The notes beneath the pieces were generated by a model. That model was not told the DNA's origin. It was given only the letters and a program-made list of their open reading frames with translations, and searched no databases. Shown here piece by piece: positions 19,729 through 53,478 of a DNA stretch of 57,195 nucleotides (position 1 is its first letter; the number at the start of each line of letters is the position of its first letter). The stretch lies in IMG/VR virus record IMGVR_UViG_3300045988_171585, positions 1-57,195 of that record. One strand, 5' to 3'. Both the position numbers and the translations under genes were made by a program. This DNA is from a virus.

Positions 19729-20002
19729 TGAGGAAATACAAGAGATTTTAGATGAATTACAACTAGTTAGAGCCGAGGTGTTAAAACCTAAAGCGAAAAG
19801 ATTATTTGATGCAATAATGTGTATTGCTGATGATAGAGATAAATATCTGAAAGAAAATCAAAAATTAAAAGAAGATATAAATTTTTGTTTACATTCGATT
19901 AAACAAGAAATGGAAATGTCAAAAGACGAAAGAACAAGAAAAGAAATGTCTACTTGTTATTATATACTAAGAGGTGGAATAAATGAAAGTAGATATTTAT
20001 AA
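19721..20002 (+). CDS. hypothetical protein
   Basis: Start refined to the ATG at 19721 after gaggtggaaagca. Confidence 0.45.
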   Translation: MNDEEIQEILDELQLVRAEVLKPKAKRLFDAIMCIADDRDKYLKENQKLKEDINFCLHSIKQEMEMSKDERTRKEMSTCYYILRGGINESRYL

Positions 20003-20528
20003 TACAGATAAGAAATACAATATCATTTATGCAGATCCACCATGGAGTTATAAAGATAAAGCATTAGCAGGAGATCGGGGGGCTTGTTGTAAATATGATG
20101 TCATGACAATAGAAGATATAGAAAATCTACCTATAAAAGATATTTCTGCTAATGATTGTGTATTATTCATGTGGGTTACAATGCCTAAATTAAATGAATG
20201 TTTTGATGTGATTAAAAAATGGGGGTTTGAATATAAAACTTGTGCTTTCACTTGGATTAAGCAAAATAAAAAAAGCAATAGTTTATTTTGGGGTATGGGT
20301 AGTTGGACTAGAGCAAATGCTGAATTATGTTTAATTGCTACTAAAGGAAAACCTAAAAGACAATCTGCAAAAGTACATAGTGTAATAATGAGTAAGATAA
20401 GAGAACATTCAAGAAAACCTGATGAAACTAGAGATAGAATAGTAGAATTGTGTGGTGATATACCTAGAATAGAATTATTTGCGAGACAATCAGTTGATGG
20501 CTGGGATTGTTGGGGTAATGAAGTATAA
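19983..20528 (+). CDS. MT-A70 family DNA N6-adenine methyltransferase
   Basis: IIYADPPWSY (DPPW) motif. Confidence 0.75.
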   Translation: MKVDIYNTDKKYNIIYADPPWSYKDKALAGDRGACCKYDVMTIEDIENLPIKDISANDCVLFMWVTMPKLNECFDVIKKWGFEYKTCAFTWIKQNKKSNSLFWGMGSWTRANAELCLIATKGKPKRQSAKVHSVIMSKIREHSRKPDETRDRIVELCGDIPRIELFARQSVDGWDCWGNEV

Positions 20529-20566
20529 ATTTTACAAAAATATAAAGAAATAATAGGAGATAAATA

Positions 20567-21295
20567 ATGATAGATTTAAGACAAGGCGATTGTTTAGAAA
20601 TAATGAAGGATATACCTGACAAATCAATAGATATGATACTATGCGATTTGCCCTATGGCACCACTGCTTGTAAATGGGATGTGGTTATTCCTTTTGAATC
20701 ATTATGGGAACAATATAATAGAATAATAAAAGATAATGGTGCAATAGTTTTATTTAGTAAACAACCTTTTACAACTGAATTAATACATAGTAATTTAAAG
20801 AATTTTAAATATAGTTTAGTATGGAAAAAAGATAATCACGACAATCCACTAATGGCTAAAAAAAGATTTCTAAATATAACAGAAGATATAAATATATTTT
20901 ATAAAAAACAATGTGTTTATAACCCACAAGGAATTATAAAAGTAAATAAAATTACAAAACAGGGCAGAGGAGAAAGTTTGTCACAAAAAAATACGAGAAA
21001 AATGGAATATTTACAAGAATATACTAATTACCCTAGAAATATTTTAGAGTTTAAAAGAGATTTGCCAAATATTCACCCAACCCAGAAGCCAGTTGCACTT
21101 CTTGAATATTTAATTAAAACATATACAAATGAAAATGAAACAGTATTAGATAATTGTATGGGGTCTGGAAGTACAGGAGTAGCTTGTATGAATACTAATA
21201 GAAATTTTATAGGAATAGAGTTAGATGAAAAATACTTTGAAATAGCAAAAGAACGAATAGAAAAAGAACAAAATAAATGGGAGGATTTAAACTAA
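20567..21295 (+). CDS. DNA methyltransferase (N6-adenine/N4-cytosine, beta class)
   Basis: DLPYG motif IV, HPTQKP, C-terminal NCMGSGSTG SAM-binding motif. Confidence 0.7.
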   Translation: MIDLRQGDCLEIMKDIPDKSIDMILCDLPYGTTACKWDVVIPFESLWEQYNRIIKDNGAIVLFSKQPFTTELIHSNLKNFKYSLVWKKDNHDNPLMAKKRFLNITEDINIFYKKQCVYNPQGIIKVNKITKQGRGESLSQKNTRKMEYLQEYTNYPRNILEFKRDLPNIHPTQKPVALLEYLIKTYTNENETVLDNCMGSGSTGVACMNTNRNFIGIELDEKYFEIAKERIEKEQNKWEDLN

Positions 21296-21813
21296 TGCCT
21301 CAACAGATAAAAACATGCAAAAGAAAAACACACGACGATGAGTTCTTTACAATGTATAAAGATTGTGTTAGAGAACTTCATAAGTACGATTTAAGAAATA
21401 AAAAGATAATTTGTCCTTGTGATAATAAAGATAGTAATATTTATAAATATTTAAAAGATTGTTACTATGATGTAAAATATGATAACAAAGAATGGAGAAA
21501 TATTGATTATTCAAAATACGATTTAGTAATAACCAATCCCCCATTTAGCCAAGTAAGAGAATTTATAAGACATTTAGTTAATAAAAAAATAGATTTTATA
21601 ATAGTTGTTAGTGATGTTTTGAGGTATAGTATCGCAAAAGGTAAAACTGATTTTGGGATAGTATTGTACAAAGGTTGGGATGCTCAAAAGTTTTATAGAC
21701 CGGATGGTAGTATACAAGCGGTACATTGTGGATGGATTTCTACCATTCCTGATGATTGGGGTGAAAACAAAATAATGAAAGAAGTTGACGATAATGGAAT
21801 TTTGGATAAATAA
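21295..21813 (+). CDS. putative small DNA methyltransferase (NPPF motif)
   Basis: LVITNPPFSQ; start refined to the ATG at 21295 after gggaggat. Confidence 0.4.
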   Translation: MPQQIKTCKRKTHDDEFFTMYKDCVRELHKYDLRNKKIICPCDNKDSNIYKYLKDCYYDVKYDNKEWRNIDYSKYDLVITNPPFSQVREFIRHLVNKKIDFIIVVSDVLRYSIAKGKTDFGIVLYKGWDAQKFYRPDGSIQAVHCGWISTIPDDWGENKIMKEVDDNGILDK

Positions 21814-22135
21814 TAGGCGATGGACCATAGAAGAGGTCAACAGTAATTGGTTATTAACAGAATATAAAAAAGAAAACGATAAAGGTGTGTATTGTTTTGG
21901 TTTAACGAAATATAATGAGCAAGCTATCTATATAAACACTGAGGTACATAAAGATGTTAAAAAGCAAACTTTGTATCACGAGTTAATGCATTGTTATTTA
22001 TGGAACTATGCTCAAAACTTTGATGAAGTAAGTGAGGAATTATTATGTGATATATCAGCAAATAGTCACGATATCATACATAAAATTGTAGAAGCATACT
22101 TTGAGTTGAAAGAGAGTAATAATAATGGATTTTAA
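21785..22135 (+). CDS. ImmA/IrrE-family zinc metallopeptidase (standalone)
   Basis: AIYINTEV...QTLYHELMHC HEXXH-like core typical of DUF955/ImmA. Confidence 0.55.
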   Translation: MTIMEFWINNRRWTIEEVNSNWLLTEYKKENDKGVYCFGLTKYNEQAIYINTEVHKDVKKQTLYHELMHCYLWNYAQNFDEVSEELLCDISANSHDIIHKIVEAYFELKESNNNGF

Positions 22136-24899
22136 TGAACTAATAAACAATCGTTTATGGGGATTTGATTTTGAGGTAACAAAGTATGATTGGCTACTTG
22201 TATTAATAAAATATTCAGATAAAACAAAAATAACTTTCCATAATGATTGTGCAGATGATATATTTAGTTTTATTGAAAAATATGATCCCATTTTAATAGG
22301 ACATAATGCACGTTATTATGACCAGTATATTTTAAAAGGTATTGAATCGGGTTTTTCAGTAGAAGAAGTTAAAAACATTAATGACTATATTATTAATGGT
22401 GGACAAGGCTTTGAATTACAATATGATTATGTACAACTCCCCCCGATATGGGATACTATACAAGATGTAGTTCCCCCAAAAAGTTTAAAAGAAATAGAAG
22501 CGAATCTTTTAATGGATATTACCGAATCTACGGTTAGTTTCGATATAGACCACCCATGGAACGAGCAAGAATATAATGAAATGCTATATTATTGTACAAA
22601 AGATGTTGAAGCACTGTTTCCTTTATTTGAAGCGAGAAAAGGTTATTTTAAAACCAAGTACGATTTATGTGTGTTATCGAGCATCGACCCCGCATATAAT
22701 ATCGGTCTTACCAATGCAAAACTTTGTGCGAAGTTTTTAGAAGCAAAAAAAGTAGACCGAGATGATGAAAGGGAATATATTATACCATCTACAATTGATA
22801 TAAATTATGTTCCTAAAGAGATATTAAAATTTTTTGAGAGAGTACATGATAAAACAATTTCAGATGAAGAACTATTTACTAGTAAATTAGAATTTGATTT
22901 TCATGGTATGCCATCTGTGTTTGCGTCAGGTGGGGCTCATGGTGCGTTGCCTAACTACAGATATGATGAAAAATTAAATCCTAATATAGTGGTCATTAAT
23001 GTAGACTATTCTAGTCTGTATCCTCATCTACTTGCTCTCCCAGAATACAATTTTATTTCTCGAAATATTAAAGATAAAAATAAATACTATAATACTCTTC
23101 AACGAAGATTACAATTAAAACATGAAGGTAAAAAAGAAGAACAGTTACCACTTAAGCTTATACTTAACACTACTTATGGTTGTCAGAATAACAAATATAA
23201 TGATTTATACGATCCTAAAGGAGCAAGAAATACTTGTTGGACGGGTCAGTTGTTATTAGCATCTATGACTGAAGAAGTATTTCAAATAGGTGGAGTAAAA
23301 TTAATCCAAATAAACACAGATGGTTTGATGATTGAATTACCACGAGAGAAGTTACCAGAGTATTATGAGGTTTGTAATAAGTTCTCTGAGAGAGTAAAGA
23401 TAGGTGTTGAGTATGATATAATTCATAAAATAATACAACGTGACGTGAATAACTACATTATGGTTTACGGAGAAGAAGGACATTTAAGTATTAAAGCGAA
23501 AGGTGGATGTTTTGCTAGTTTACCTAAATTAACTATAGAAGAGGATGGAAGTGTTTCTAGTAAATATAAACCTGACTTTAAAGCTAATTCTTTAGCAATA
23601 GTTTCGGAAGCACTTGCAAAATATTTATTATTTGATACGCCCATAGAGGAAACGATATTAAACGATGATACAACACACAAGTATCAACTCGTGTCTCATC
23701 TTGGCTCAACCTATGAAAAATGTGTTCAAGAAAGTGCGAACGGAGACATCCTATTACAAAAAAATAATAGAATATATGCTGGGCTAACACCTAGTGGGAA
23801 GATAGTAAAAGTGAAACCAGATGGAAGAAGAGATTCATTGGCTAACCAGCCACCAAATCCAATAATAGATAATGGTAATAAATGCACCATTGACCAAATT
23901 AATAAACAGTGGTATATTAAACTTGCTACCCAATGGGCTAATGATTTCCTAGGAATCAAGAGATTAACAGAATATAAAAAAGATGAACTACTAACCATGG
24001 CTAAAGACCTAGGTTTAGAAGTAGATAAAAAGACTAAAAAGGATGAACTAATAAAAATGATAGAAGAAAGAAATGAGGTAAAAGAAATGGCTACAAAAAA
24101 AGTAGAAACAAATGAAGAAACAAAAACTATGACTATTTATGAAAAAATAGCGAAAATGACAAAAGAAATTAGAGAACACGATTTTGTAATGGATTGTGTA
24201 AACCCCGGTAATCTTGGTGGAAAAGAATATGCATCAATAGGTCAGTACTACAATCTATTACATAACTTATGTGATAAATATCATTTATTATTTAGATGGG
24301 ATGTTACGAACCTGGAGTATTTTGAAAAGGACGTATTCAAACCTACCGGTAAAATGCCTTCTAATGTGGCTGTGGTATGTTGTAAAGCAACATTTATTGA
24401 TATTGACGCCACACAATATGATAGAATTAAAAGCGATGAAAACTTTGCTTATGCTGTAAATAGTATATATAGCATGACTTATAGTGCTATGGCAGGTGGT
24501 AGTGATATTGCTGACAAATCAGTTTCGGGAGCTAGTACTTTAGCATTTAGAAATTGGTTTGATAAAAACTTCACACCAAAATATATGAATGCTATAGAAG
24601 AAGAAATAACAGAGTCATCTGAAGAAAAAACTGAAGCTCCTAAAATACCAGCGTATATTCCACCACAAAAGAAAGAAGAAATAAAAGAAGAAGTTGTAAG
24701 TACTAAACAAAATAGCACAGATGAAGATATTAAAAGAGTTATTGATACTATTATGAAAATAAGAGATATGAGTAATAACCCTGAATATGGTAAATCAACA
24801 TTAAATACGATCATGACAACAGAGATAACAGCAGCAGATTTACTTTCAATAGAATTAAAATTAAATAATAAGTTAGATGAGTTAGGAGGTAATAAATAA
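22125..24899 (+). CDS. Family B DNA polymerase with 3'-5' exonuclease domain
   Basis: Exo I FDFEV, Exo II HNARYYDQ, Exo III YCTKDV; Pol A VDYSSLYP, Pol B KLILNTTYG, Pol C-like INTDG. Confidence 0.8.
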   Translation: MDFNELINNRLWGFDFEVTKYDWLLVLIKYSDKTKITFHNDCADDIFSFIEKYDPILIGHNARYYDQYILKGIESGFSVEEVKNINDYIINGGQGFELQYDYVQLPPIWDTIQDVVPPKSLKEIEANLLMDITESTVSFDIDHPWNEQEYNEMLYYCTKDVEALFPLFEARKGYFKTKYDLCVLSSIDPAYNIGLTNAKLCAKFLEAKKVDRDDEREYIIPSTIDINYVPKEILKFFERVHDKTISDEELFTSKLEFDFHGMPSVFASGGAHGALPNYRYDEKLNPNIVVINVDYSSLYPHLLALPEYNFISRNIKDKNKYYNTLQRRLQLKHEGKKEEQLPLKLILNTTYGCQNNKYNDLYDPKGARNTCWTGQLLLASMTEEVFQIGGVKLIQINTDGLMIELPREKLPEYYEVCNKFSERVKIGVEYDIIHKIIQRDVNNYIMVYGEEGHLSIKAKGGCFASLPKLTIEEDGSVSSKYKPDFKANSLAIVSEALAKYLLFDTPIEETILNDDTTHKYQLVSHLGSTYEKCVQESANGDILLQKNNRIYAGLTPSGKIVKVKPDGRRDSLANQPPNPIIDNGNKCTIDQINKQWYIKLATQWANDFLGIKRLTEYKKDELLTMAKDLGLEVDKKTKKDELIKMIEERNEVKEMATKKVETNEETKTMTIYEKIAKMTKEIREHDFVMDCVNPGNLGGKEYASIGQYYNLLHNLCDKYHLLFRWDVTNLEYFEKDVFKPTGKMPSNVAVVCCKATFIDIDATQYDRIKSDENFAYAVNSIYSMTYSAMAGGSDIADKSVSGASTLAFRNWFDKNFTPKYMNAIEEEITESSEEKTEAPKIPAYIPPQKKEEIKEEVVSTKQNSTDEDIKRVIDTIMKIRDMSNNPEYGKSTLNTIMTTEITAADLLSIELKLNNKLDELGGNK

Positions 24900-25026: not shown

Positions 25027-25248
25027 ATGGATGATTCTAACAAAGTCGTTCTTCAATTCGATGAGAATGGTAAGTTTGTGAGAGAATGGAAAAATCTATC
25101 AGAGATTTATAAAGAATTAAGATATAACACGGCTTATATACGAAAATGCTGTGAATACCGAAGTGACTGGTATAAAGGTAGTAGATGGGTTTATAAGGAG
25201 GATTATTTGCTATGGAGTGGAAATACAGCGAAGACAGAAAAAGAATAA
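25027..25248 (+). CDS. NUMOD/IENR-like DNA-binding protein (homing-endonuclease-associated motif only)
   Basis: FDENGKFVREWKNLSEIYKELRYNTAYIRKC...GSRWVYKEDY. Confidence 0.4.
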   Translation: MDDSNKVVLQFDENGKFVREWKNLSEIYKELRYNTAYIRKCCEYRSDWYKGSRWVYKEDYLLWSGNTAKTEKE

Positions 25249-26270
25249 TATTAGATACCCCACCAAAACAACTTTTGAGAATTAGTGGGCATCGTATGGC
25301 GACTGTACTCGGGTTAAATCATTTTGCGACGCCATTTCAAGCGTGGGCAGAAATAACCAAGTTATTAAAAGTACCGTTTGAAGAGAATAAATATCTGATT
25401 ATGGGTAGAGTAGCTGAACCAAAAATAATAGATTATGTTAGAGATAAGTTTCCTAATGTAATGAGTATGGAAGAATACTATGGTAATGCTATTGATGATT
25501 ATCGTTATAATAATTTTAAATACGATAGCAAAATCTTTGGTGGAATGTTTGACTTTGTTTGTACAAAAAATGATAAGAAGACAATAACGCTTATTGGGGA
25601 AATAAAAACAAGTGGAAAACCAGAATTATTCCAAAACAATAACATTCCTCAAGAGTACCTTTTACAAGCTGCTTTATATGCTAAACTAAAAGGTTTGGAT
25701 AAAGTGTTGTTTGTTATTTCTATAGTAAACGAGGAAGATTATATGCACCCCGAGATGTTTGTTCCAACTGATGAAAATACGACGTTGATTGTAAAAAAAT
25801 TAGACGATTTGTTTTTTGAAATAGACGGTGAATATTGTGGTATTGATGATTGTATGAGAAAAGCTGAAGAATTTTGGAACAACTATGTCTTAACCGGAAT
25901 ATCACCGGAGTTCGATGAAAAACTAGATAAAGATTATTTAGATATAATAAGAGCAAGTAAACCATCAAATGATAACGATTTATCAACACTTTGTCTTGAA
26001 GGTATAAGGCTTGCAAGAGAAATAAATGAACTTAAAACAACGTCAGGTTTGTCAGCAAAAGAAAAAGAACTTAAAACAATTGAAAAAGCTATAAAAGAAG
26101 TTATGATAAATTCAAATTTGGATTGTTGTGAGGGATACACATTAAAAAGAAATAGCAAACAAGTGTTCGATGAAGAGAGATTTTCTAAAGAACATCCGAA
26201 ATCATATGAAGGATATTTAATAGATAAAATTGAAGTAAAACTTAGTAAAAATATAAAGGAGGATAATTAG
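25212..26270 (+). CDS. PD-(D/E)xK exonuclease (YqaJ/RecB-like)
   Basis: aaggagg RBS; D...E-x-K core FDFVCT...LIGEIKTSGK; N-terminal YqaJ-like segment. Confidence 0.5.
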   Translation: MEWKYSEDRKRIILDTPPKQLLRISGHRMATVLGLNHFATPFQAWAEITKLLKVPFEENKYLIMGRVAEPKIIDYVRDKFPNVMSMEEYYGNAIDDYRYNNFKYDSKIFGGMFDFVCTKNDKKTITLIGEIKTSGKPELFQNNNIPQEYLLQAALYAKLKGLDKVLFVISIVNEEDYMHPEMFVPTDENTTLIVKKLDDLFFEIDGEYCGIDDCMRKAEEFWNNYVLTGISPEFDEKLDKDYLDIIRASKPSNDNDLSTLCLEGIRLAREINELKTTSGLSAKEKELKTIEKAIKEVMINSNLDCCEGYTLKRNSKQVFDEERFSKEHPKSYEGYLIDKIEVKLSKNIKEDN

Positions 26271-26979: not shown

Positions 26980-26983
26980 TTGA

Positions 26984-27008
26984 AAGACCAAGAGGTCTTT
27001 TTTCTAAT
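26984..27008 (+). terminator. Rho-independent terminator
   Basis: aagacc aagag ggtctt followed by a T-run. Confidence 0.65.
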
Positions 27009-27225
27009 TTATTTCTAATTAATTTAATACTTTATTATGTAAGTTTTAATATATACTTATTATAGACAGAGGTGATAAAGATGTATTGTAAAAGCAATAG
27101 TTTTAAAAACTGTGTTAAACAATCATTGATGGTTGCCTCTGTTTTTTGGTGTAAAAAAGTGGACTTCGACGATGAGATGTTAAATCAAAAAATTGAAGAA
27201 ATTGTAAAATATATAGAAAGGATAG

Positions 27226-27633
27226 ATGAAAATGTACAATAATTATAACCCGTACAATCCGTACTTTAATAATCAACAAATACAAAATAGATATCAACCT
27301 GTTGATCCACCTATTGGTCCTAAACCTATGGGACTTAATGGTAAAGTTGTAGACAGTGTTGACACCGTAAAAGGAATGGATATTAACCTTGATGGTACTA
27401 TTAGTTATTTTCCTTTAGCAGACGGTAGTAAAATTATTACCAAGCAACTAAATAGTGATGGGACTAGTAAAATAGTTATTTATTCTCAAACTAAAGAGGA
27501 TAATAAAGAGGTTAAATATGTTACTAGTGAAGAACTAGATAAAGCCATCAAGAAAATCGATTTGTCCGATATAAAAGATGATATTAAATCTTTGAAAAAA
27601 CAAATTAAAGAGTTGAGGGATACTGATGAATAA
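27226..27633 (+). CDS. hypothetical protein (YNPYNPY N-terminus, coiled-coil C-terminus)
   Basis: ORF in accessory cassette. Confidence 0.5.
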   Translation: MKMYNNYNPYNPYFNNQQIQNRYQPVDPPIGPKPMGLNGKVVDSVDTVKGMDINLDGTISYFPLADGSKIITKQLNSDGTSKIVIYSQTKEDNKEVKYVTSEELDKAIKKIDLSDIKDDIKSLKKQIKELRDTDE

Positions 27634-27853
27634 TCCAATAAATATGATAAAGATGATGATGGGGAAAATGTCCCCAAAAGATATGGCGATGAAAATGATA
27701 GAAAATAATTCTAATCCTGTATTTGCTAATTTAATAGATATGGCAAATAAAGGAGATACTAAAGGTGTTGAGGACTTTGCTAGGAATATTTGTAAAGAAA
27801 AAAACATCGACTTCGATAAAGATTTCACCAACTTTATGAATAATTTTAAATAG
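27626..27853 (+). CDS. hypothetical Met-rich small protein
   Basis: ORF. Confidence 0.45.
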   Translation: MNNPINMIKMMMGKMSPKDMAMKMIENNSNPVFANLIDMANKGDTKGVEDFARNICKEKNIDFDKDFTNFMNNFK

Positions 27854-27922
27854 GTATCTACCATTTCGTTATTAGCAACGAAAAGGATGATATAAAAAGA
27901 ATAAAGAGGGGAGGTGAAATAA

Positions 27923-28753
27923 ATGAGAGATACAGGTTTATCTGCATCAGACGTCGCACTATTATCTGGAAACAACGGAAGAAATAACGATGGTATGTTC
28001 GGTGACAACTGGGCATGGATAATTGTTCTATTTCTAATATTCGCTTTTGGCGGATGGGGTAATGGATTTGGCTTCAACGGAGGTAACGGCTCTAATGGAA
28101 GTGGAGCACTTGACAACTATGTTCTAGCCTCAGACTTTGCTACTATTCAAAGACAACTTAGTGATGGATTTAATGATTTAACTTCACAATCAAGATATAT
28201 CCAAAACGGATTATGTGATGGTTTCTATAATCAAGCACAATTAATCAATGGTGTTAATAGTAATATCGCTGGTTCAACAGCTGCTCTTCAGAACACATTG
28301 TGTCAAGGATTTAATGGTGTAAATCAAGGTATTACAATAAATGGCTATGAAAGTAGAAATGCTATCCAAGGTGTAAGTTCACAATTAGCAAGCTGTTGTT
28401 GTAATTTGAGAAGCGATATTCAAGGAGTTAATTACAATCTAGCAACTAATACTTGTGCTTTACAAAACACAATGAACACAAATACTAGAGATATAGTGGA
28501 CACTGTTAATGCAAATTATAGAGCACTTCATGACGAGATTGTTGCTAATAGAATTGAAGATAAGAATGCTCAAATCGCTGCTCAGCAAAATGAGATTAAT
28601 TCTCTTAGATTATCTGCAAGTCAAGCAAATCAAAATCAATATTTAATTAATCAATTAAAACCTTGTGCTTCACCAGCTTACATAGTTCCAAATCCAAATT
28701 GTTGCTACAATTATAATGTAACAGGTTGTTGTAATGGATGTGGAAATTATTAA
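27923..28753 (+). CDS. Membrane-anchored Gly/Asn/Cys-rich repeat protein
   Basis: GGAGG RBS; TM helix WAWIIVLFLIFAFGGW; internal LCxGF/NxxIQGV repeats; C-terminal CCYNYNVTGCCNGCGNY. Confidence 0.55.
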   Translation: MRDTGLSASDVALLSGNNGRNNDGMFGDNWAWIIVLFLIFAFGGWGNGFGFNGGNGSNGSGALDNYVLASDFATIQRQLSDGFNDLTSQSRYIQNGLCDGFYNQAQLINGVNSNIAGSTAALQNTLCQGFNGVNQGITINGYESRNAIQGVSSQLASCCCNLRSDIQGVNYNLATNTCALQNTMNTNTRDIVDTVNANYRALHDEIVANRIEDKNAQIAAQQNEINSLRLSASQANQNQYLINQLKPCASPAYIVPNPNCCYNYNVTGCCNGCGNY

Positions 28754-28820
28754 TGCGTAACCCTATTTAGGAAACTCGATTACGAGAACTCGCAATCCCG
28801 TGTAATAACACGGATTTAAA

Positions 28821-28848
28821 GATAGGGTAAAACCTATCTTTTTTAAAC
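28821..28848 (+). terminator. Terminator-like hairpin
   Basis: gatagg gtaaaa cctatc followed by tttttt. Confidence 0.45.
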
Positions 28849-28870
28849 CATAAAGAAAGGAAATGATAAA

Positions 28871-29317
28871 ATGATTCAAGGATACAATGAGAGTATTGTT
28901 AGTTTGCCTAGTAATTCCGCTCCGATTACATTAACAACAGATTGTATAAGAACTAGGAGTACTTATAATTGGTTGTGCCATTCACAAGGTTCACCAATAT
29001 ATAAAATAAAACAAGGTGGAAGATATAGAGTATCTTTTAACACAAATGCAACATCAGCAGCAACAGGTATAGTGGCTTTTGGTTTGTATGCTGATGGTGT
29101 TTTAGTACCAGGTACAACTGTTATTGCAGATGTAGCTACAGCGGGTAGTTATTACAATTTATCTTTTGATAAAGAAGTGCCTATATGTTGTGGGACATCT
29201 ACAACATTAACTGTTGCTTCTGTTCCAAGCGTACTTAGCGGTGCAACACCAGCTGCAACAGTAACGCAAGTACCTACTATTCAAAACACTAATTTGATTA
29301 TCACGAGAGAGTGTTAG
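28871..29317 (+). CDS. TNF/C1q-like beta-sandwich protein (BclA C-terminal/ExsF-like)
   Basis: Compositional and pattern similarity to exosporium BclA-CTD/BxpB-type proteins; Ala/Thr/Val-rich. Confidence 0.4.
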   Translation: MIQGYNESIVSLPSNSAPITLTTDCIRTRSTYNWLCHSQGSPIYKIKQGGRYRVSFNTNATSAATGIVAFGLYADGVLVPGTTVIADVATAGSYYNLSFDKEVPICCGTSTTLTVASVPSVLSGATPAATVTQVPTIQNTNLIITREC

Positions 29318-29325
29318 GTGATATT

Positions 29326-29769
29326 ATGGATAATATAAAAGAAAAAGTTGAAAAAATAATAGGTGATATGGGTGAAAGAGAACTAGAACCGAATGATATA
29401 GATATGCTTGGTAAATTAGTGGATATTCACAAGGATATCGCAAACGAAGAATACTGGAAGGAGAAGTTAGAAATGAGATACGGAAATTATAGAAGAGACT
29501 ATGATTACGATGATATGTCATACGGAAGAAGACGTAGAGATAGTCGTGGACGCTATATGAAATCAGGTAAAATGATGGATGACATGTATGATACATATAA
29601 TAAATATGACGAGTCAAGAAGTTATGGTGATAGAGGTGAAACCGCAAAATCTTTAGAATACATGATGCAATCGGCATATGATTTTATTTGTATGTTAGAG
29701 GACGAAGCAAATACTGATGAAGAAATGGACATTATAAGAAAATATGCCAGAAAAATCAGCGAGTTATAG
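29326..29769 (+). CDS. hypothetical Arg/Tyr/Asp-rich protein
   Basis: ORF. Confidence 0.45.
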   Translation: MDNIKEKVEKIIGDMGERELEPNDIDMLGKLVDIHKDIANEEYWKEKLEMRYGNYRRDYDYDDMSYGRRRRDSRGRYMKSGKMMDDMYDTYNKYDESRSYGDRGETAKSLEYMMQSAYDFICMLEDEANTDEEMDIIRKYARKISEL

Positions 29770-30118
29770 ATATTACAATAATAATCCGAAACACTTGCTG
29801 ACCGATGATTGTGTTTTGAGATCCTTATCTGTAGCTGAGGGTATAAGTTGGAATGAGTGTCAACGAAAATTAAGTTACTTATCGGCTACAGAAGGATTAA
29901 TATTAAACGACGTGGAATTTGTTGAAAATTATTTAGATGAACGATACCCAAGAAAATGTTATAGAGATATGACTATTGGAGAATTTGCCAGTGTTTGCCC
30001 AAAAGGAAACTTTGTTGTTACAACAGATGGTCATATAACGGCAATTATAAATAACATCATAGTAGATACTTGGGATTGTTCTAATAAAATAATGAAATGT
30101 TGCTGGCAAATAAAATAA
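29744..30118 (+). CDS. hypothetical Cys-containing protein
   Basis: ORF followed by terminator. Confidence 0.45.
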   Translation: MPEKSASYRYYNNNPKHLLTDDCVLRSLSVAEGISWNECQRKLSYLSATEGLILNDVEFVENYLDERYPRKCYRDMTIGEFASVCPKGNFVVTTDGHITAIINNIIVDTWDCSNKIMKCCWQIK

Positions 30119-30120
30119 AT

Positions 30121-30150
30121 AAGCCCCCTTATTTAAGGGGCTTTTCTTTC
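30121..30150. terminator. Bidirectional rho-independent terminator
   Basis: agcccc ttatttaa ggggct flanked by A and T runs. Confidence 0.65.
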
Positions 30151-30251: not shown

Positions 30252-30506
30252 TTAACTAGTTCTCTTTAAATAATCATACACTTTGGATAATACTTTTTTC
30301 ATATCGTACGTATACTTAAAATCAGATACCCCGAGTTGTAGTGAAGAATAAGTTCGTGTATAATCTTTATTTAAATAGAGTAATAAGTTGGTTTCATAAT
30401 CGCATAAGTGCATATCTTTGCATAACTCAACAACACTGTTATAGCAGATGCTTTTTATATATCGTTTTGTATAAAGATAATCCTTTTTATCCATAATATC
30501 CCTCAC
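30252..30506 (-). CDS. hypothetical protein
   Basis: ORF. Confidence 0.5.
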   Translation of the reverse strand: MRDIMDKKDYLYTKRYIKSICYNSVVELCKDMHLCDYETNLLLYLNKDYTRTYSSLQLGVSDFKYTYDMKKVLSKVYDYLKRTS

Positions 30507-30664
30507 AATCTTATTATATTACTTTTAAAACATAAATTAATTAGGAATAAATGTTAAAAAAGTTAGGAATATAATAGCATAATTTGTGTTAGTTTGAGTA
30601 TATATAAAATCGTAAATCTCGTAAATTTTCGTAGATATTCGTAATTATTGGTCGAAAATAAACA

Positions 30665-30886
30665 CTACAAAGTATTTTGTAATGTTAATTTTGCTCTTTC
30701 TTGAAGAGTCTTTTTTCTATTTCTAACAGTACCTTCAGAAATATTTAATTCTTTAGCAATATTACAATTATTTTCCCCAAGTCTCCATAACTCGAATATT
30801 CTTTTTTCACCTCGAGCGATATTAAAATACATGGAATTTAATAAAAATGTATATAATGTTTCGTTTTCAACAATCTTATTTCCCAT
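30665..30886 (-). CDS. Sigma-70 region-4/ArpU-like late transcription regulator
   Basis: RIFELWRLGENNCNIAKELNISEGTVRNRKKTL. Confidence 0.55.
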   Translation of the reverse strand: MGNKIVENETLYTFLLNSMYFNIARGEKRIFELWRLGENNCNIAKELNISEGTVRNRKKTLQERAKLTLQNTL

Positions 30887-30958: not shown

Positions 30959-31315
30959 TTACTCATCCTTTAGTTTATCATAGCATTCTCTAATAAAAGC
31001 TTCTTCACTTTCAAAAAGTCCGTTATGAACACCAAGTCTATCTACGGCTTCATCGTAATCTGATAAAAATACAAATATACTTGCATACTCGTGTCTAGTA
31101 TGAGGAACACCTCTCCTTAGATCGCCAGCAAATCTACATACTTCAAATCGCCACTGTTCCATATCTTTTTTTAAAGAAGCGAGTTCATTTTTATCTATTT
31201 TCTTTTCCAAAGGTTTTATTTTTCTGTCTATAAGCTTATTTACAATCGCTGAAAACGCACCCAGTACACTTGATATTGTAAGTAAGAGATTTAAATATTC
31301 TTTAATATTTTCCAT
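30959..31315 (-). CDS. Membrane protein with BhlA/UviB-like N-terminus (holin-like?)
   Basis: N-terminal TM LLLTISSVLGAFSAIV followed by a charged coiled-coil. Confidence 0.35.
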   Translation of the reverse strand: MENIKEYLNLLLTISSVLGAFSAIVNKLIDRKIKPLEKKIDKNELASLKKDMEQWRFEVCRFAGDLRRGVPHTRHEYASIFVFLSDYDEAVDRLGVHNGLFESEEAFIRECYDKLKDE

Positions 31316-32115
31316 TACGCTTTAATTAAATTTCCGTTTTTAAGTTTATTTAATAGTTCAGTATTTTGTTCAGCTGAACCATGATAATTGTTTATTCCGT
31401 TTACTTCAGCAAGTCTTGTACGATAGTTGTAAGAACTATCTATTCCTATTTCGTTTAAAGCATCCGCAATTGATACGCCGGTGTATGATGTATTTGATAA
31501 ATAATCGTGTTTTGGTTTTAATAATTCATTAACCCTAGCTTGAACTTCGCCATATCTATCACCAAGTGCTTTCTTTCTATCATCACCGTTGCCATAGATA
31601 CCACTTATAACCTCTTGTGCTAATTCATCAATTGATTTTTGAGGTATAACCTCTTTAGTATATCTTCTAACATCTTCTTTAGATACACCAAAATATGAGT
31701 ATGGGTCTGTCCAATATGAACTATTACCTCTTCCTTCGTCGCCTTTATATGTTCCGTTTTTTCTATTATCTAAATGAACATAATTACCATCAATATTAGC
31801 AATACCATTTAATTCACCCAAGTCGTTAGCAACACAGCAAACAATACCTGCCGGTATAACTTCGCCATTTTCATCATAATATACACAATCAGCCGCTAAC
31901 CCTTCTGAATGACGACCAGCAAAACCTCCGATTTGTATATCATATGATGGGCATCTATATCCACTAGATATAATACATTTACTAGCATTTAATTTTGAAA
32001 AAATATGTTCCATTTTTTCAACTAGTTCTCTTTCAATTTTAATATTTCCACAATGCTGACAGACAAATTCTGTACTATGAAAATGTTCAGTTATTTTAAT
32101 TGAGTCCGTTATCAT
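31315..32115 (-). CDS. Endolysin: Peptidase_M15 (L-Ala-D-Glu/D-Ala-D-Ala peptidase) + CW_7 cell-wall-binding repeat
   Basis: SGYRCPSYDIQIGGFAGRHSEGLAADC M15 signature; ISGIYGNGDDRKKALGDRYGEVQARVNELL CW_7 motif. Confidence 0.8.
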   Translation of the reverse strand: MITDSIKITEHFHSTEFVCQHCGNIKIERELVEKMEHIFSKLNASKCIISSGYRCPSYDIQIGGFAGRHSEGLAADCVYYDENGEVIPAGIVCCVANDLGELNGIANIDGNYVHLDNRKNGTYKGDEGRGNSSYWTDPYSYFGVSKEDVRRYTKEVIPQKSIDELAQEVISGIYGNGDDRKKALGDRYGEVQARVNELLKPKHDYLSNTSYTGVSIADALNEIGIDSSYNYRTRLAEVNGINNYHGSAEQNTELLNKLKNGNLIKA

Positions 32116-32290
32116 TATTATTTCCTCCTTCTTTTTTAACAGATTGGGCTCCTAGAAAGAACCCTATTACAGTTACTACCACTGATTGTAATTCTTGTGG
32201 CACTGACGATTTAACCACAATACAATAAGCAAACAATAGCATAGTAATAACTGTTATGAACGATTTAATATCATCCCAACATTTCTTCAT
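32096..32290 (-). CDS. Holin
   Basis: 64 aa, two TM helices, charged C-terminus, overlaps the endolysin start. Confidence 0.65.
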   Translation of the reverse strand: MKKCWDDIKSFITVITMLLFAYCIVVKSSVPQELQSVVVTVIGFFLGAQSVKKEGGNNNDNGLN

Positions 32291-32399: not shown

Positions 32400-32955
32400 G
32401 AAATCTTCGCAAGTTTACCATTACAAATGAAACTAATACTTGCTATCTATTTTATAGGTAGCATAGAGTAGATAATTATCATAACCTGTTCTATGAGGTT
32501 GACTATATAAATCAATAGAACAATGGGAAAATATAGTCCTTATCTATTCTATGGTACTTATGAGAGTAAGTATCGAACTTAAACATATTAATTTCATGAT
32601 AATGCTATCTATTTTATAGGTAGCATAGAGTAAATAATATAACTCAATTGGTAGAGTGTGGAGCGTACGCAATTCTTAAAAACCAGGACACGAGAGTTAC
32701 AGGTTCAAATCCTGTTGTTATTTACTCTATGGTGCTTATAAATACTAGTAGTCTATAAATGTGTTCCATAATGGAGTAAGTCAAGTTCCACTTGATGTAG
32801 AAATCATCTTTATAGACAATAAGCACGGTTAGTAGGTAACGTGTTGGTTATTTACCCAAACGGGAAATAAGTATGAGCTGGTGAGCTAATATTTAAAACT
32901 AGTTGTGATTGGTTCAAATCCAATCCGTATTTGTTTCCCTAAATATTTACATATT
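32400..32955 (+). ncRNA. Candidate large structured ncRNA with two tRNA T-arm-like elements
   Basis: No ORF; promoter upstream; terminator downstream; 33-bp direct repeat at 32444 and 32607; GGTTCAAATCC T-arm motifs at 32699-32715 and 32908-32924 with pairing acceptor-like ends but no canonical anticodon arm. Confidence 0.35.
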
Positions 32956-53403: not shown

Positions 53404-53478
53404 TGGAGGTGGTAGTAGGAATCGAACCTACAATAAAAGTTTTGCAGACTTTCGCCTTAACCCTTTGGCTATACCACC
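53404..53478 (-). tRNA. tRNA-Cys (GCA) with encoded CCA
   Basis: Reverse complement folds as a cloverleaf: acceptor GGTGGTA/TACCACC, anticodon stem AAAGT/ACTTT with loop CTGCAAA, T-arm GTAGG-TTCGATT-CCTAC, 3' TCCA. Confidence 0.8.

Follow-up and report, generated by a model that had tools for sequence, protein, structure and literature searches.

A conserved accessory module of tailed gut viruses encodes a predicted membrane-anchored stalk and a TNF/C1q-fold partner

What do six short genes lying between two transcription terminators do in the life of a tailed phage, when none of them resembles a phage gene of named function? The question is raised by IMG/VR virus record IMGVR_UViG_3300045988_171585, whose whole stretch of 57,195 nucleotides (nt), hereafter the window, represents a tailed-phage genome of ~57 kb with a G+C content of about 30%. 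An earlier note, made from the sequence alone, had described at this locus a terminator-bounded accessory cassette with a protein of the BclA/ExsF type, and its leading idea was a spore-coat or exosporium modification module. We confirmed the observation and found the accessory cassette with its BclA/ExsF-type protein to be rightly described, whereas the spore reading is not supported. The six genes (gp1 to gp6), together with a small leader open reading frame (ORF), are one transcription unit, which is a conserved and mobile accessory module of tailed gut viruses. As to its function, we tentatively propose, with less than even confidence, a trimeric stalk-and-knob complex that is tethered to the cytoplasmic membrane and acts there during lytic growth, probably late.

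All six module ORFs are on the + strand, overlapping or closely spaced, and are preceded by the additional leader ORF (g0) at 27072/27081-27242. Upstream, an intrinsic-terminator-like hairpin at 26982-27001 (+; 8 bp stem with 3 G-C pairs, then a T-run) ends the replication/recombination block, and downstream a bidirectional terminator at 30121-30143 (9 bp stem, five of its pairs G-C, and a T-run on each strand) is common to the operon and the convergent − strand unit. Terminator-like sites in the region number 11, against 2.2 expected. The 123-nt gap between gp3 and gp4 folds at -27.5 kcal/mol (z = -3.9 versus shuffles) and contains at 28820-28845 (+) the hairpin GAUAGGG-UAAAA-CCUAUC followed by U6, a possible partial terminator or attenuator within the operon.

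The possibility of an assembly chimera, which had been left standing by the earlier note, can be set aside because an identical 276-amino-acid (aa) gp3 with the same neighbours was found on 10 contigs from independent samples, eight of which are 50-200 kb long; the remaining module proteins recur on up to 104 contigs. GenBank holds the module proteins as DAL09008-DAL09012, all labelled 'hypothetical protein [Bacteriophage sp.]'. No module protein matched a named phage function in Pfam, NCBIfam, PHROGs or PADLOC, in agreement with the earlier note. For all six proteins the matches in Pfam, NCBIfam and PADLOC were sub-threshold or at chance level, including ZorA (E 9.5e-4, no stretch passing) and Cas8b (E 0.004) in PADLOC. 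A one-by-one Pfam scan of 34 gp6, 104 distant gp6 and 90 gp1/gp2/gp5/g4b members (g4b being a replacement of gp4 described below) found no recurrent family, and sequence searches of solved structures, with the single proteins and with profiles of gp1, gp3, gp4, gp6 and g4b, gave nothing significant. None of the known defence, toxin or lysis systems matches the module, and the toxin- or defence-like system considered earlier left no signature in the PADLOC search. The cassette had no megablast match among 50,697 phage records, and no description of the module was found in the published literature. The statement that it was previously undescribed holds for the function but not for the protein families, five of which (phrog_21718, phrog_16490, phrog_20016, phrog_28802 and phrog_3754) are already catalogued in PHROGs without a function.

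To follow the module beyond the window, we searched with gp3 by tblastn, which matched 41 phage records, and a scan of one genome per species gave 38 loci (cited below by L number), all on phage-size contigs of metagenome-assembled genomes (MAGs) binned to unrelated taxa and none from an isolate. The order gp1-gp2-gp3-gp4-gp5-gp6 is kept in about 25 loci at 33-77% identity, as traced by tblastn and family hidden Markov models, and the pair of gp3 and its next gene is maintained in much more distant phages. In Dulem virus 35, Butyrivibrio phage Ceridwen and several MAG contigs the module families are present with gp6 at the front. Upstream flanks across the loci are endolysin/holin, RecE-like exonuclease, DNA polymerase or portal/minor head genes, and downstream flanks are integrase, primase, scaffold/major head (capsid) or endolysin genes; in bajarodcaudo virus 5 and Ceridwen the module follows lysis genes, and in Dulem virus 35 it separates the gene of the minor capsid (minor head) protein from the scaffold/major capsid genes. 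Such unrelated flanks from locus to locus indicate an accessory module that is inserted at the boundaries of core blocks, in support of the accessory nature claimed at the outset.

This pattern bears on the possibility that the genes do not work together at all and are unrelated small accessory genes that merely travel together. Relatives of gp6 do occur alone elsewhere and gp4 is replaced in many loci. However, five or six genes stand in the same order in dozens of contigs, at identities of 33-77%, and in distant phages with wholly different flanks the set forms anew with gp6 at the opposite end; we therefore regard mere co-travelling as quite improbable.

In relatives, though not in the window, homing endonuclease ORFs (~165-195 aa, on either strand) are found between gp2 and gp3, with gp2-gp3 insertions in L010, L014, L015, L023, L024, L026, L027, L029, L030, L032 and L033. 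The 42 non-family ORFs inside the module include 11 with HNH_3, seven with NUMOD4, three with NUMOD1 and one with LAGLIDADG_2 matches. In L036 (6001-7154), L042 (4499-6459) and L046 (4270-6396), gp3 is split into two parts with 0.4-1.3 kb between them, suggestive of an intron or an inserted endonuclease gene.

The core protein of the module is gp3 (27923-28753, +; 276 aa; phrog_16490, E 1e-37), and its transmembrane (TM) helix, Gly/Asn linker, internal repeats and Cys cluster are as first described. An acidic N-tail (residues 1-29) is followed by a conserved Trp/Phe/Gly-rich TM helix at residues 30-46 (nt 28010-28060, +; WAWIIVLFLIFAFGGWG), the Gly/Asn linker and a conserved DNYVLASDFATxQRQ box, a helical stalk of about 180 residues (residues 66-245; nt 28118-28657, +) with CCC at residues 158-160 (nt 28394-28402, +), and a Pro/Cys-rich tail (residues 246-276; nt 28658-28750, +) ending in GCGCG-like motifs. 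In the helix, WWIIIFLIFAFxGGWG, the sequence itself and not only its hydrophobicity is conserved from Firmicutes phages to archaeal viruses, and in an alignment of 53 close homologues (72-94% identical) the CCC, C98, C178 and C248 are invariant or nearly so. Hydrophobic residues recur with a period of 3.6 residues (power 102; 95th percentile of shuffled sequences, 57), internal repeats are spaced by 11, 18, 29 and 58 residues, and relatives gain or lose blocks of 11, 15 and 18 residues. This period together with the repeat offsets points to a non-heptad helical fibre. Several xxNT motifs in gp3 resemble the Asn-at-d layers in the stalks of trimeric adhesins such as the trimeric autotransporters. 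Modelling by AlphaFold2 with the 53 homologues returned the TM helix and long helices only, at a mean predicted local distance difference test (pLDDT) of 46. By these sequence features, gp3 is shown as a predicted integral membrane protein with a long helical, repeat-built and Cys-studded stalk.

The gene following gp3 encodes gp4 (28871-29317, +; 148 aa), which has an invariant CC at residues 106-107 and a high-confidence predicted structure (pLDDT 90.8). The model superposes as a compact ten-stranded jelly roll on the BclA C-terminal domain (BclA-CTD) or C1q, in agreement with the earlier assignment to the TNF/C1q fold of BclA-CTD/ExsF type. Among solved structures the nearest are F-BclA, BclA-CTD, EDA, C1q domains and ExsFA, with phage fibre tips lower in the list, and in the viral structure library the closest neighbours are free-standing proteins of 130-150 aa from uncultured phages. 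The top structural neighbours are all known trimers, and by analogy we infer that gp4 is a trimer too. Against Pfam PF18573, gp4 scored 23.8 bits (E 4.4e-5), under the 38-bit gathering cutoff, and a few of its homologues carry a precomputed PF18573 match. The protein is an entirely globular domain without GXX repeats and does not have the make-up of a BclA-type exosporium glycoprotein. Compared with BclA-CTD, F-BclA and ExsFA/BxpB, the PF18573 TNF/C1q trimers of the Bacillus exosporium and spore appendages, gp4 has an identity of only 13-18%, is phage-encoded, lacks collagen-like repeats and an exosporium-targeting N-terminus, and belongs to a module found also in phages of non-sporulating hosts. 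On its model, gp4 is best described as a new stand-alone member of the BclA-CTD/C1q/TNF fold class, with an architecture closest to ExsFA.

Fibre tips with the knob fold of gp4 are found in cyanophages A4 and A-1(L), in the C-terminal domain of TM4 gp23, in the receptor-binding protein of lactococcal phage 1358 and in PRD1 P5, and BFVD contains many phage proteins that join a collagen repeat to a gp4-type domain, the general design being a trimeric stalk with a distal knob. The module differs from these phage collagen/C1q fibres in that its stalk is alpha-helical and membrane-anchored, its knob would be a separate polypeptide and its genes are outside the tail block. Which gene follows gp3 varies among phages, the products being of at least three small, beta-rich and mutually unrelated types. 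In 11 loci, including Clostridium perfringens phage CPD1, gp4 is replaced by g4b, a Cys-rich and beta-rich protein of ~140 aa with the motif MxCxNNCxLC...YCIVxAQxIP...ASQxRTRR (L002 6947-7363, L004 6457-6831, L015, L018, L020, L022, L027, L031, L041, L043 and L045), for which no relation to gp4 (hhalign), Pfam or PDB was detectable. Bacteroides and crAss-like phages have a third beta-rich type after gp3, and hhalign detected no relation of these proteins to gp4 either.

The composition of gp3 and gp4 sets them apart from their neighbours. Of the 85 predicted proteins these two have the lowest Lys content, at 0.7% and 2.0% where the median is 9.4%, and both are rich in Asn, Ser, Thr, Gly and Gln and contain Cys, whereas the four other module proteins differ, gp1, gp2 and gp5 being Lys-rich like ordinary cytoplasmic proteins. 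Lys depletion is family-wide for gp3 and gp4 and is seen in g4b also. This contrast marks gp3 and gp4 as a structural pair, with the other proteins as helpers. The module makes up 5.6% of the genome codons and has 26 of the 237 Cys codons, an enrichment of only twofold; a tRNA-Cys (GCA) gene is present in the window at 53404-53478 (−).

With more than 7,900 significant homologues among the matches listed, the gp3 family is far wider than the module of the window. Homologues were found in six C. perfringens phages, in Butyrivibrio (B. fibrisolvens) phage Ceridwen, which has gp4, gp5 and gp6 homologues too, in Bacteroides uniformis phage C3_41T2LP, in many crAss-like phages and in two viruses assigned to Methanomassiliicoccales, and L045 is likewise binned with a Methanomassiliicoccales MAG. 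In cultured relatives the corresponding entries are CPD1_036-040 for C. perfringens phage CPD1, QHJ73765-QHJ73771 for Ceridwen and C341T2LP_00036 for C3_41T2LP. The viruses carrying the module infect bacteria and, probably, archaea, and every source named in the homologue records is a gut or faecal sample. In crAss-like phages the gp3 gene has in-frame TAG codons at conserved positions, and in cr52_1 (L047, 4575-5498) two such codons stand where relatives have Gln, Glu or Arg, consistent with stop-codon recoding.

Butyrivibrio, Bacteroides and archaea do not sporulate, and the presence of gp3 homologues in phages of such hosts rules out a spore-specific role. The idea of a spore-coat or exosporium module had drawn on the closest solved structures of gp4, which are exosporium and spore-appendage proteins (F-BclA, BclA and ExsFA), on Cys-, Tyr- and Arg-rich module proteins that recall coat proteins, and on a Pfam YlbD_coat match of gp1 at an E-value of only 0.097. 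It is already largely refuted by the homologues in Butyrivibrio, Bacteroides and crAss-like phages and in archaeal viruses; moreover, the module has neither a collagen-like region nor an exosporium-targeting N-terminus, the gp4 fold is generic among trimeric fibre heads and common at phage fibre tips, and neither coat nor exosporium genes are mentioned in a published survey of the sporulation genes that gut phages carry. We thus consider a spore function very improbable.

At the other end of the operon, gp6 (29744-30118, +; 124 aa; phrog_3754, E 1.4e-17) is a probable papain-like cysteine peptidase by prediction. Residues N12, D22, C23, R26, H97 and D108 are invariant in 34 module copies, and in 104 distant representatives the D-C pair is invariant while N, P, R, H and D are at least 90% conserved. 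The candidate catalytic residues are C23, H97 and D108 (nt 29810-29812, 30032-30034 and 30065-30067, +), accompanied by N12 and R26; H97 lies 74 residues past C23, and D108 a further 11. This order and spacing fit a papain-like catalytic triad, and the arrangement Asn...Asp-Cys...His...Asp is the same in the papain-fold C39, NlpC/P60, CHAP and transglutaminase-like peptidases. In contrast to those families, gp6 has no sequence match in Pfam, NCBIfam or PDB, including any to a known peptidase family, and hhalign of its profile with an annotated C39-like phage protein found no relation. The family comprises at least 610 cluster representatives, and a few GenBank homologues are labelled 'peptidase'. 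Outside the module, Bacillus phage KoopaTroopa (L048, 3477-3881) and Pseudomonas phage vB_PaeM_B55, a Pakpunavirus (L049, 3462-3947), each carry a lone gp6-family gene in an apparently early region. In large Bacillus phages the gene adjoins a Ser/Thr kinase and an Ocr-like DNA mimic, and one distant member is fused to an R2K-type ATP-grasp domain.

A peptidase beside gp3 raises the alternative of a leader-processed exported peptide or bacteriocin-like toxin, in which gp6, as a C39-type enzyme, would cleave a double-glycine-like leader (LSASDVALLSG) off gp3. The gp3 N-terminus loosely matches LSxxELxxIxGG, and the Cys/His/Asp pattern of gp6 has C39-like spacing. However, the −1 residue is Asn or Arg, never Gly, Ala or Ser, so that the motif ends in GN or GR; an alternative gp3 N-terminus (IVPVMEV...) without the motif still co-occurs with gp6; and there is no ATP-binding cassette exporter. 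A double-glycine leader on gp3 was rejected on these three points. With the negative hhalign comparison to the C39-like protein and the fibrous, 276-aa nature of gp3 also against it, the toxin alternative is hardly credible.

Of the remaining proteins, gp1, gp2 and gp5 are proposed as helpers. The leader ORF g0 (+; 53-56 aa) overlaps the gp1 start, is called as 53 aa in relatives and is conserved within the same phage species only. A Tyr/Asn/Pro/Gln-rich N-terminus, a small beta-rich core and a C-terminal coiled coil make up gp1 (27226-27633, +; 133-135 aa; phrog_21718, E 1.4e-9), whose conserved core reads GKxVDSxDxVKxMDIxLDGxISYFPL..G..I.TKQL..DGTSK and whose profile matched only generic coiled coils in PDB and nothing in Pfam. 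The start of gp2 (27626-27853, +; 75 aa) overlaps the gp1 stop; it is Met/Asn/Lys-rich and probably helical, has no hydrophobic segment and no family match, and accompanies gp1 and gp3 in synteny at over 30 loci. In gp5 (29311/29326-29769, +; 147 aa from 29326 or 152 aa from a GTG at 29311; phrog_28802, E 9e-8), helical ends (DIHKDxxNEEYW and SLEYMxxS...EExxxIxKYxxKISEx) flank a disordered Arg/Gly/Tyr/Asp-rich centre (YGRRxRDSRGRY). Like gp1, gp5 has neither hydrophobic segments nor a Pfam family match.

In the membrane reading that we put forward tentatively, gp3 would assemble into a trimeric stalk whose unusually conserved Trp/Phe/Gly-rich helix anchors it in the cytoplasmic membrane, and the protein encoded after gp3 would bind the Cys/Pro-rich stalk end via disulfides or metal. 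This partner would be the TNF-fold knob gp4 in the window and an unrelated small Cys-rich beta protein in other phages, while gp1, gp2 and gp5 would serve as assembly or scaffold helpers and gp6 would process one module component. A role at the membrane is favoured because the TM helix is the best-conserved part of gp3 and because the cytoplasmic membrane is the sole envelope layer common to all these hosts, and a late role because the module is often beside lysis genes, in the window as in several relatives. Among the module proteins gp3 is the only one with a hydrophobic segment, and it has none at the C-terminus; no export signal was found in gp1, gp2, gp4, gp5 or gp6. The gp3 N-tail has 0-2 positive and 2-5 negative charges, with usually one Arg after the helix. 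With gp3 alone capable of entering the membrane and its N-tail acidic, the complex would probably be built on the cytoplasmic face. The charges weakly favour an N-out, C-in orientation, which would put the stalk in the cytoplasm with the other five proteins, over the opposite one, N-in and C-out. The site and time of action, the cell membrane and most likely the last envelope or egress stage with no part in sporulation, are the weakest step of the proposal.

Several points weigh against the membrane proposal. No homology links any module member to a function, the charge bias of gp3 is weak evidence for topology, and its AlphaFold2 model is of low confidence. Homologues of gp4 (361) are far fewer than those of gp3 (more than 7,900 among the matches listed). 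Moreover, gp3 tail variants were uncorrelated with whether gp4 or g4b follows, which counts against a specific fit of tail to knob. Relatives of gp6 stand alone among early genes in Pakpunavirus and large Bacillus phages, and gp6 need not, therefore, serve gp3. Finally, the window already has a separate holin/endolysin cassette, and a Lys-poor composition is otherwise typical of the virion proteins of this phage.

The layout of gp3, with a short N-terminal segment, one TM helix and a large C-terminal domain, is shared with the T4 holin gpT and with i-spanins such as lambda Rz and P2 LysB, and the i-spanins resemble it further in a helical, Cys-containing domain; a frequent location close to lysis genes is another shared point. 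The differences are that gp3 has no sequence relation to them, that its large domain of about 230 residues is uncharged and repeat-built, that no lipoprotein partner accompanies it, and that the host is probably Gram-positive, as indicated by the CW_7 domain of the endolysin, with a separate putative holin in the window. As a candidate spanin, gp3 has the TM helix and helical domain, but it was rejected since no other module protein has a hydrophobic N-terminus and the operon is apart from holin and endolysin. A holin was rejected also, given the 276-aa length of gp3, its almost uncharged C-terminal domain (K+E 2.2%) and the other, 64-aa candidate adjoining the endolysin. Influenza HA2, like gp3, has a Gly-rich hydrophobic segment (GMFG...GGW) and then a long helix, a likeness of design only; many HA2 chains appeared as weak profile matches of gp3 (E 0.14-0.3), which are not significant, and with no C-terminal hydrophobic segment in gp3 either, a class I fusion protein was rejected.

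The main rival to action at the membrane of the infected cell, which we judge rather unlikely, is a virion accessory fibre or membrane-penetration set, with the gp3 stalk and gp4 as an exchangeable receptor- or glycan-binding tip being virion components, gp1, gp2 and gp5 assembly chaperones, and gp6 a maturation peptidase; the hydrophobic helix would be buried in the fibre, removed, or inserted into the target membrane at infection. After gp3 and gp4, the proteins of assigned role that are poorest in Lys belong to the tail block, portal and capsid, and the place of the module inside the head-gene block of Dulem virus 35 likewise favours the virion over the cell membrane. A gene with a tail-protein annotation is close to that of gp3 in crAss-like and Methanomassiliicoccales viruses, and in cr52_1 and vir215 this tail gene is followed by a reverse transcriptase gene, suggesting a diversity-generating retroelement. 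The exchange of the downstream partner between unrelated types, as with fibre tips, the fibre-tip fold of gp4, and the homing endonucleases and split gp3 in relatives also fit a virion component. On the other side, a strongly conserved and very hydrophobic 17-residue segment is unusual in a soluble virion fibre, the operon of the window is opposite in strand to the whole structural block and has its own terminators, the module position is variable and includes sites beside integrase, and a paralogue search found no module protein similar to the tail- and head-block proteins of the window.

A moron-type surface or exclusion module, that is, a membrane complex preventing superinfection or hiding receptors, be it on the infected or lysogenic cell or on the debris of that cell, is an unlikely explanation. 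It would suit the classic moron layout, in which the unit has an upstream gap of its own and a terminator at either end, the position between lysis genes and integrase in temperate relatives, and the combination of a membrane anchor with a lectin-like TNF-fold partner. However, the module is present in apparently virulent phages, the window included, which encodes its own DNA polymerase, primase and helicase and in which no integrase was matched among the ORFs scanned. In addition, six genes are many for exclusion, gp4 has no export signal, and PADLOC gave no match.

The surroundings of the operon in the window agree with the placement first given, between replication/recombination and lysis genes. 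The + strand genes from ~6,000 to 30,118 include helicases, a primase-helicase, three DNA methyltransferases and, as upstream neighbours of the operon, the DNA polymerase (22125-24899; 924 aa) and the RecE-like exonuclease (25212-26270). The − strand genes run from the right end to 30,252 and comprise terminase, portal, major head protein, an ORF of 992 aa in the tape-measure position and the tail block, and then the lysis genes. The latter, convergent with the operon, are the endolysin (31315-32115, −; Peptidase_M15_3 and CW_7 domains) and the adjoining putative holin (32096-32290, −; 64 aa). A 118-aa protein directly after the endolysin (30959-31315, −), with an N-terminal hydrophobic helix and a charged helical tail, may be a further membrane protein of the lysis cassette.

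In the 92-nt AT-rich gap upstream of the operon, the 14-mer TTCTAATTAATTTA at 27013-27026 (+) is, from its sequence and position, a candidate operator or promoter element. The 14-mer TYCTAATTAATTTA has only two exact copies in the window, the second at 30533-30546 (−), both in upstream gaps, and it recurs in the same phage species only, without conservation beyond. The second copy is upstream of the convergent neighbour d1 (30252-30506, −; 84 aa, Tyr/Lys/Asp-rich), whose homologues are found downstream of gp6, immediately in L023 and L028 and at a distance of about 1 kb in L046; d1 is possibly co-regulated with the operon, and its membership of the module is uncertain. The same copy is just downstream of the gene of a 73-aa helix-turn-helix protein (30665-30886, −), which has weak GerE and sigma-70 region 4-like matches and a promoter at 30938-30910 with a perfect TTGACA-17-TATAAT and a TG extension. 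This protein is a candidate regulator of d1 and the module.

Elsewhere in the window, the three DNA methyltransferase genes are adjacent at 19983-21813 (+) with MT-A70, N6_N4_Mtase and weak EcoRI_methylase matches, and the relative L008 carries another gene set at that position. Polymerase profiles cover only residues 6-613 of the 924-aa DNA polymerase, and residues 612-687 match endonuclease VII-like families; since L008 has a 651-aa ORF at the polymerase position, the copy in the window appears to have an extra C-terminal part. A tRNA-like element at 32633-32723 (+; Rfam 43.4 bits, E 7e-8; no call by ARAGORN) sits in the 693-nt gap between holin and tail fibre, and in it a 33-nt stretch replaces the 15-nt anticodon region.

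For the wider family, these results correct the labels 'spike glycoprotein', 'outer capsid protein' and 'BclA protein' carried by homologues; the weak HA2 likeness probably explains why gp3 homologues, including crAss-like ones, are called 'spike protein/glycoprotein' or 'outer capsid protein/viral fiber'. The stalk family, which is very large and common to viruses of Gram-positive bacteria, Bacteroidota and probably methanogens, has had no assigned function, and its fixed partner set, comprising a knob or a replacement for it, three helpers and the probable cysteine peptidase, makes a testable unit out of what were separate hypothetical proteins. A broader and more doubtful idea is that gp3 and its partners are a hitherto unrecognised membrane machine independent of the host envelope across Firmicutes, Bacteroidota and Methanomassiliicoccales, either for egress or remodelling or as a two-component insertion spike, in which, much as in class I fusion, gp4 or its replacement would be the jelly-roll head, gp3 the stalk with a Gly-rich hydrophobic peptide and gp6 the priming peptidase. 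If the module acts at the membrane, it would represent an accessory step of the lytic cycle that is independent of cell-wall type, and, should it instead form a virion fibre, gut-specific adhesion would be a candidate role.

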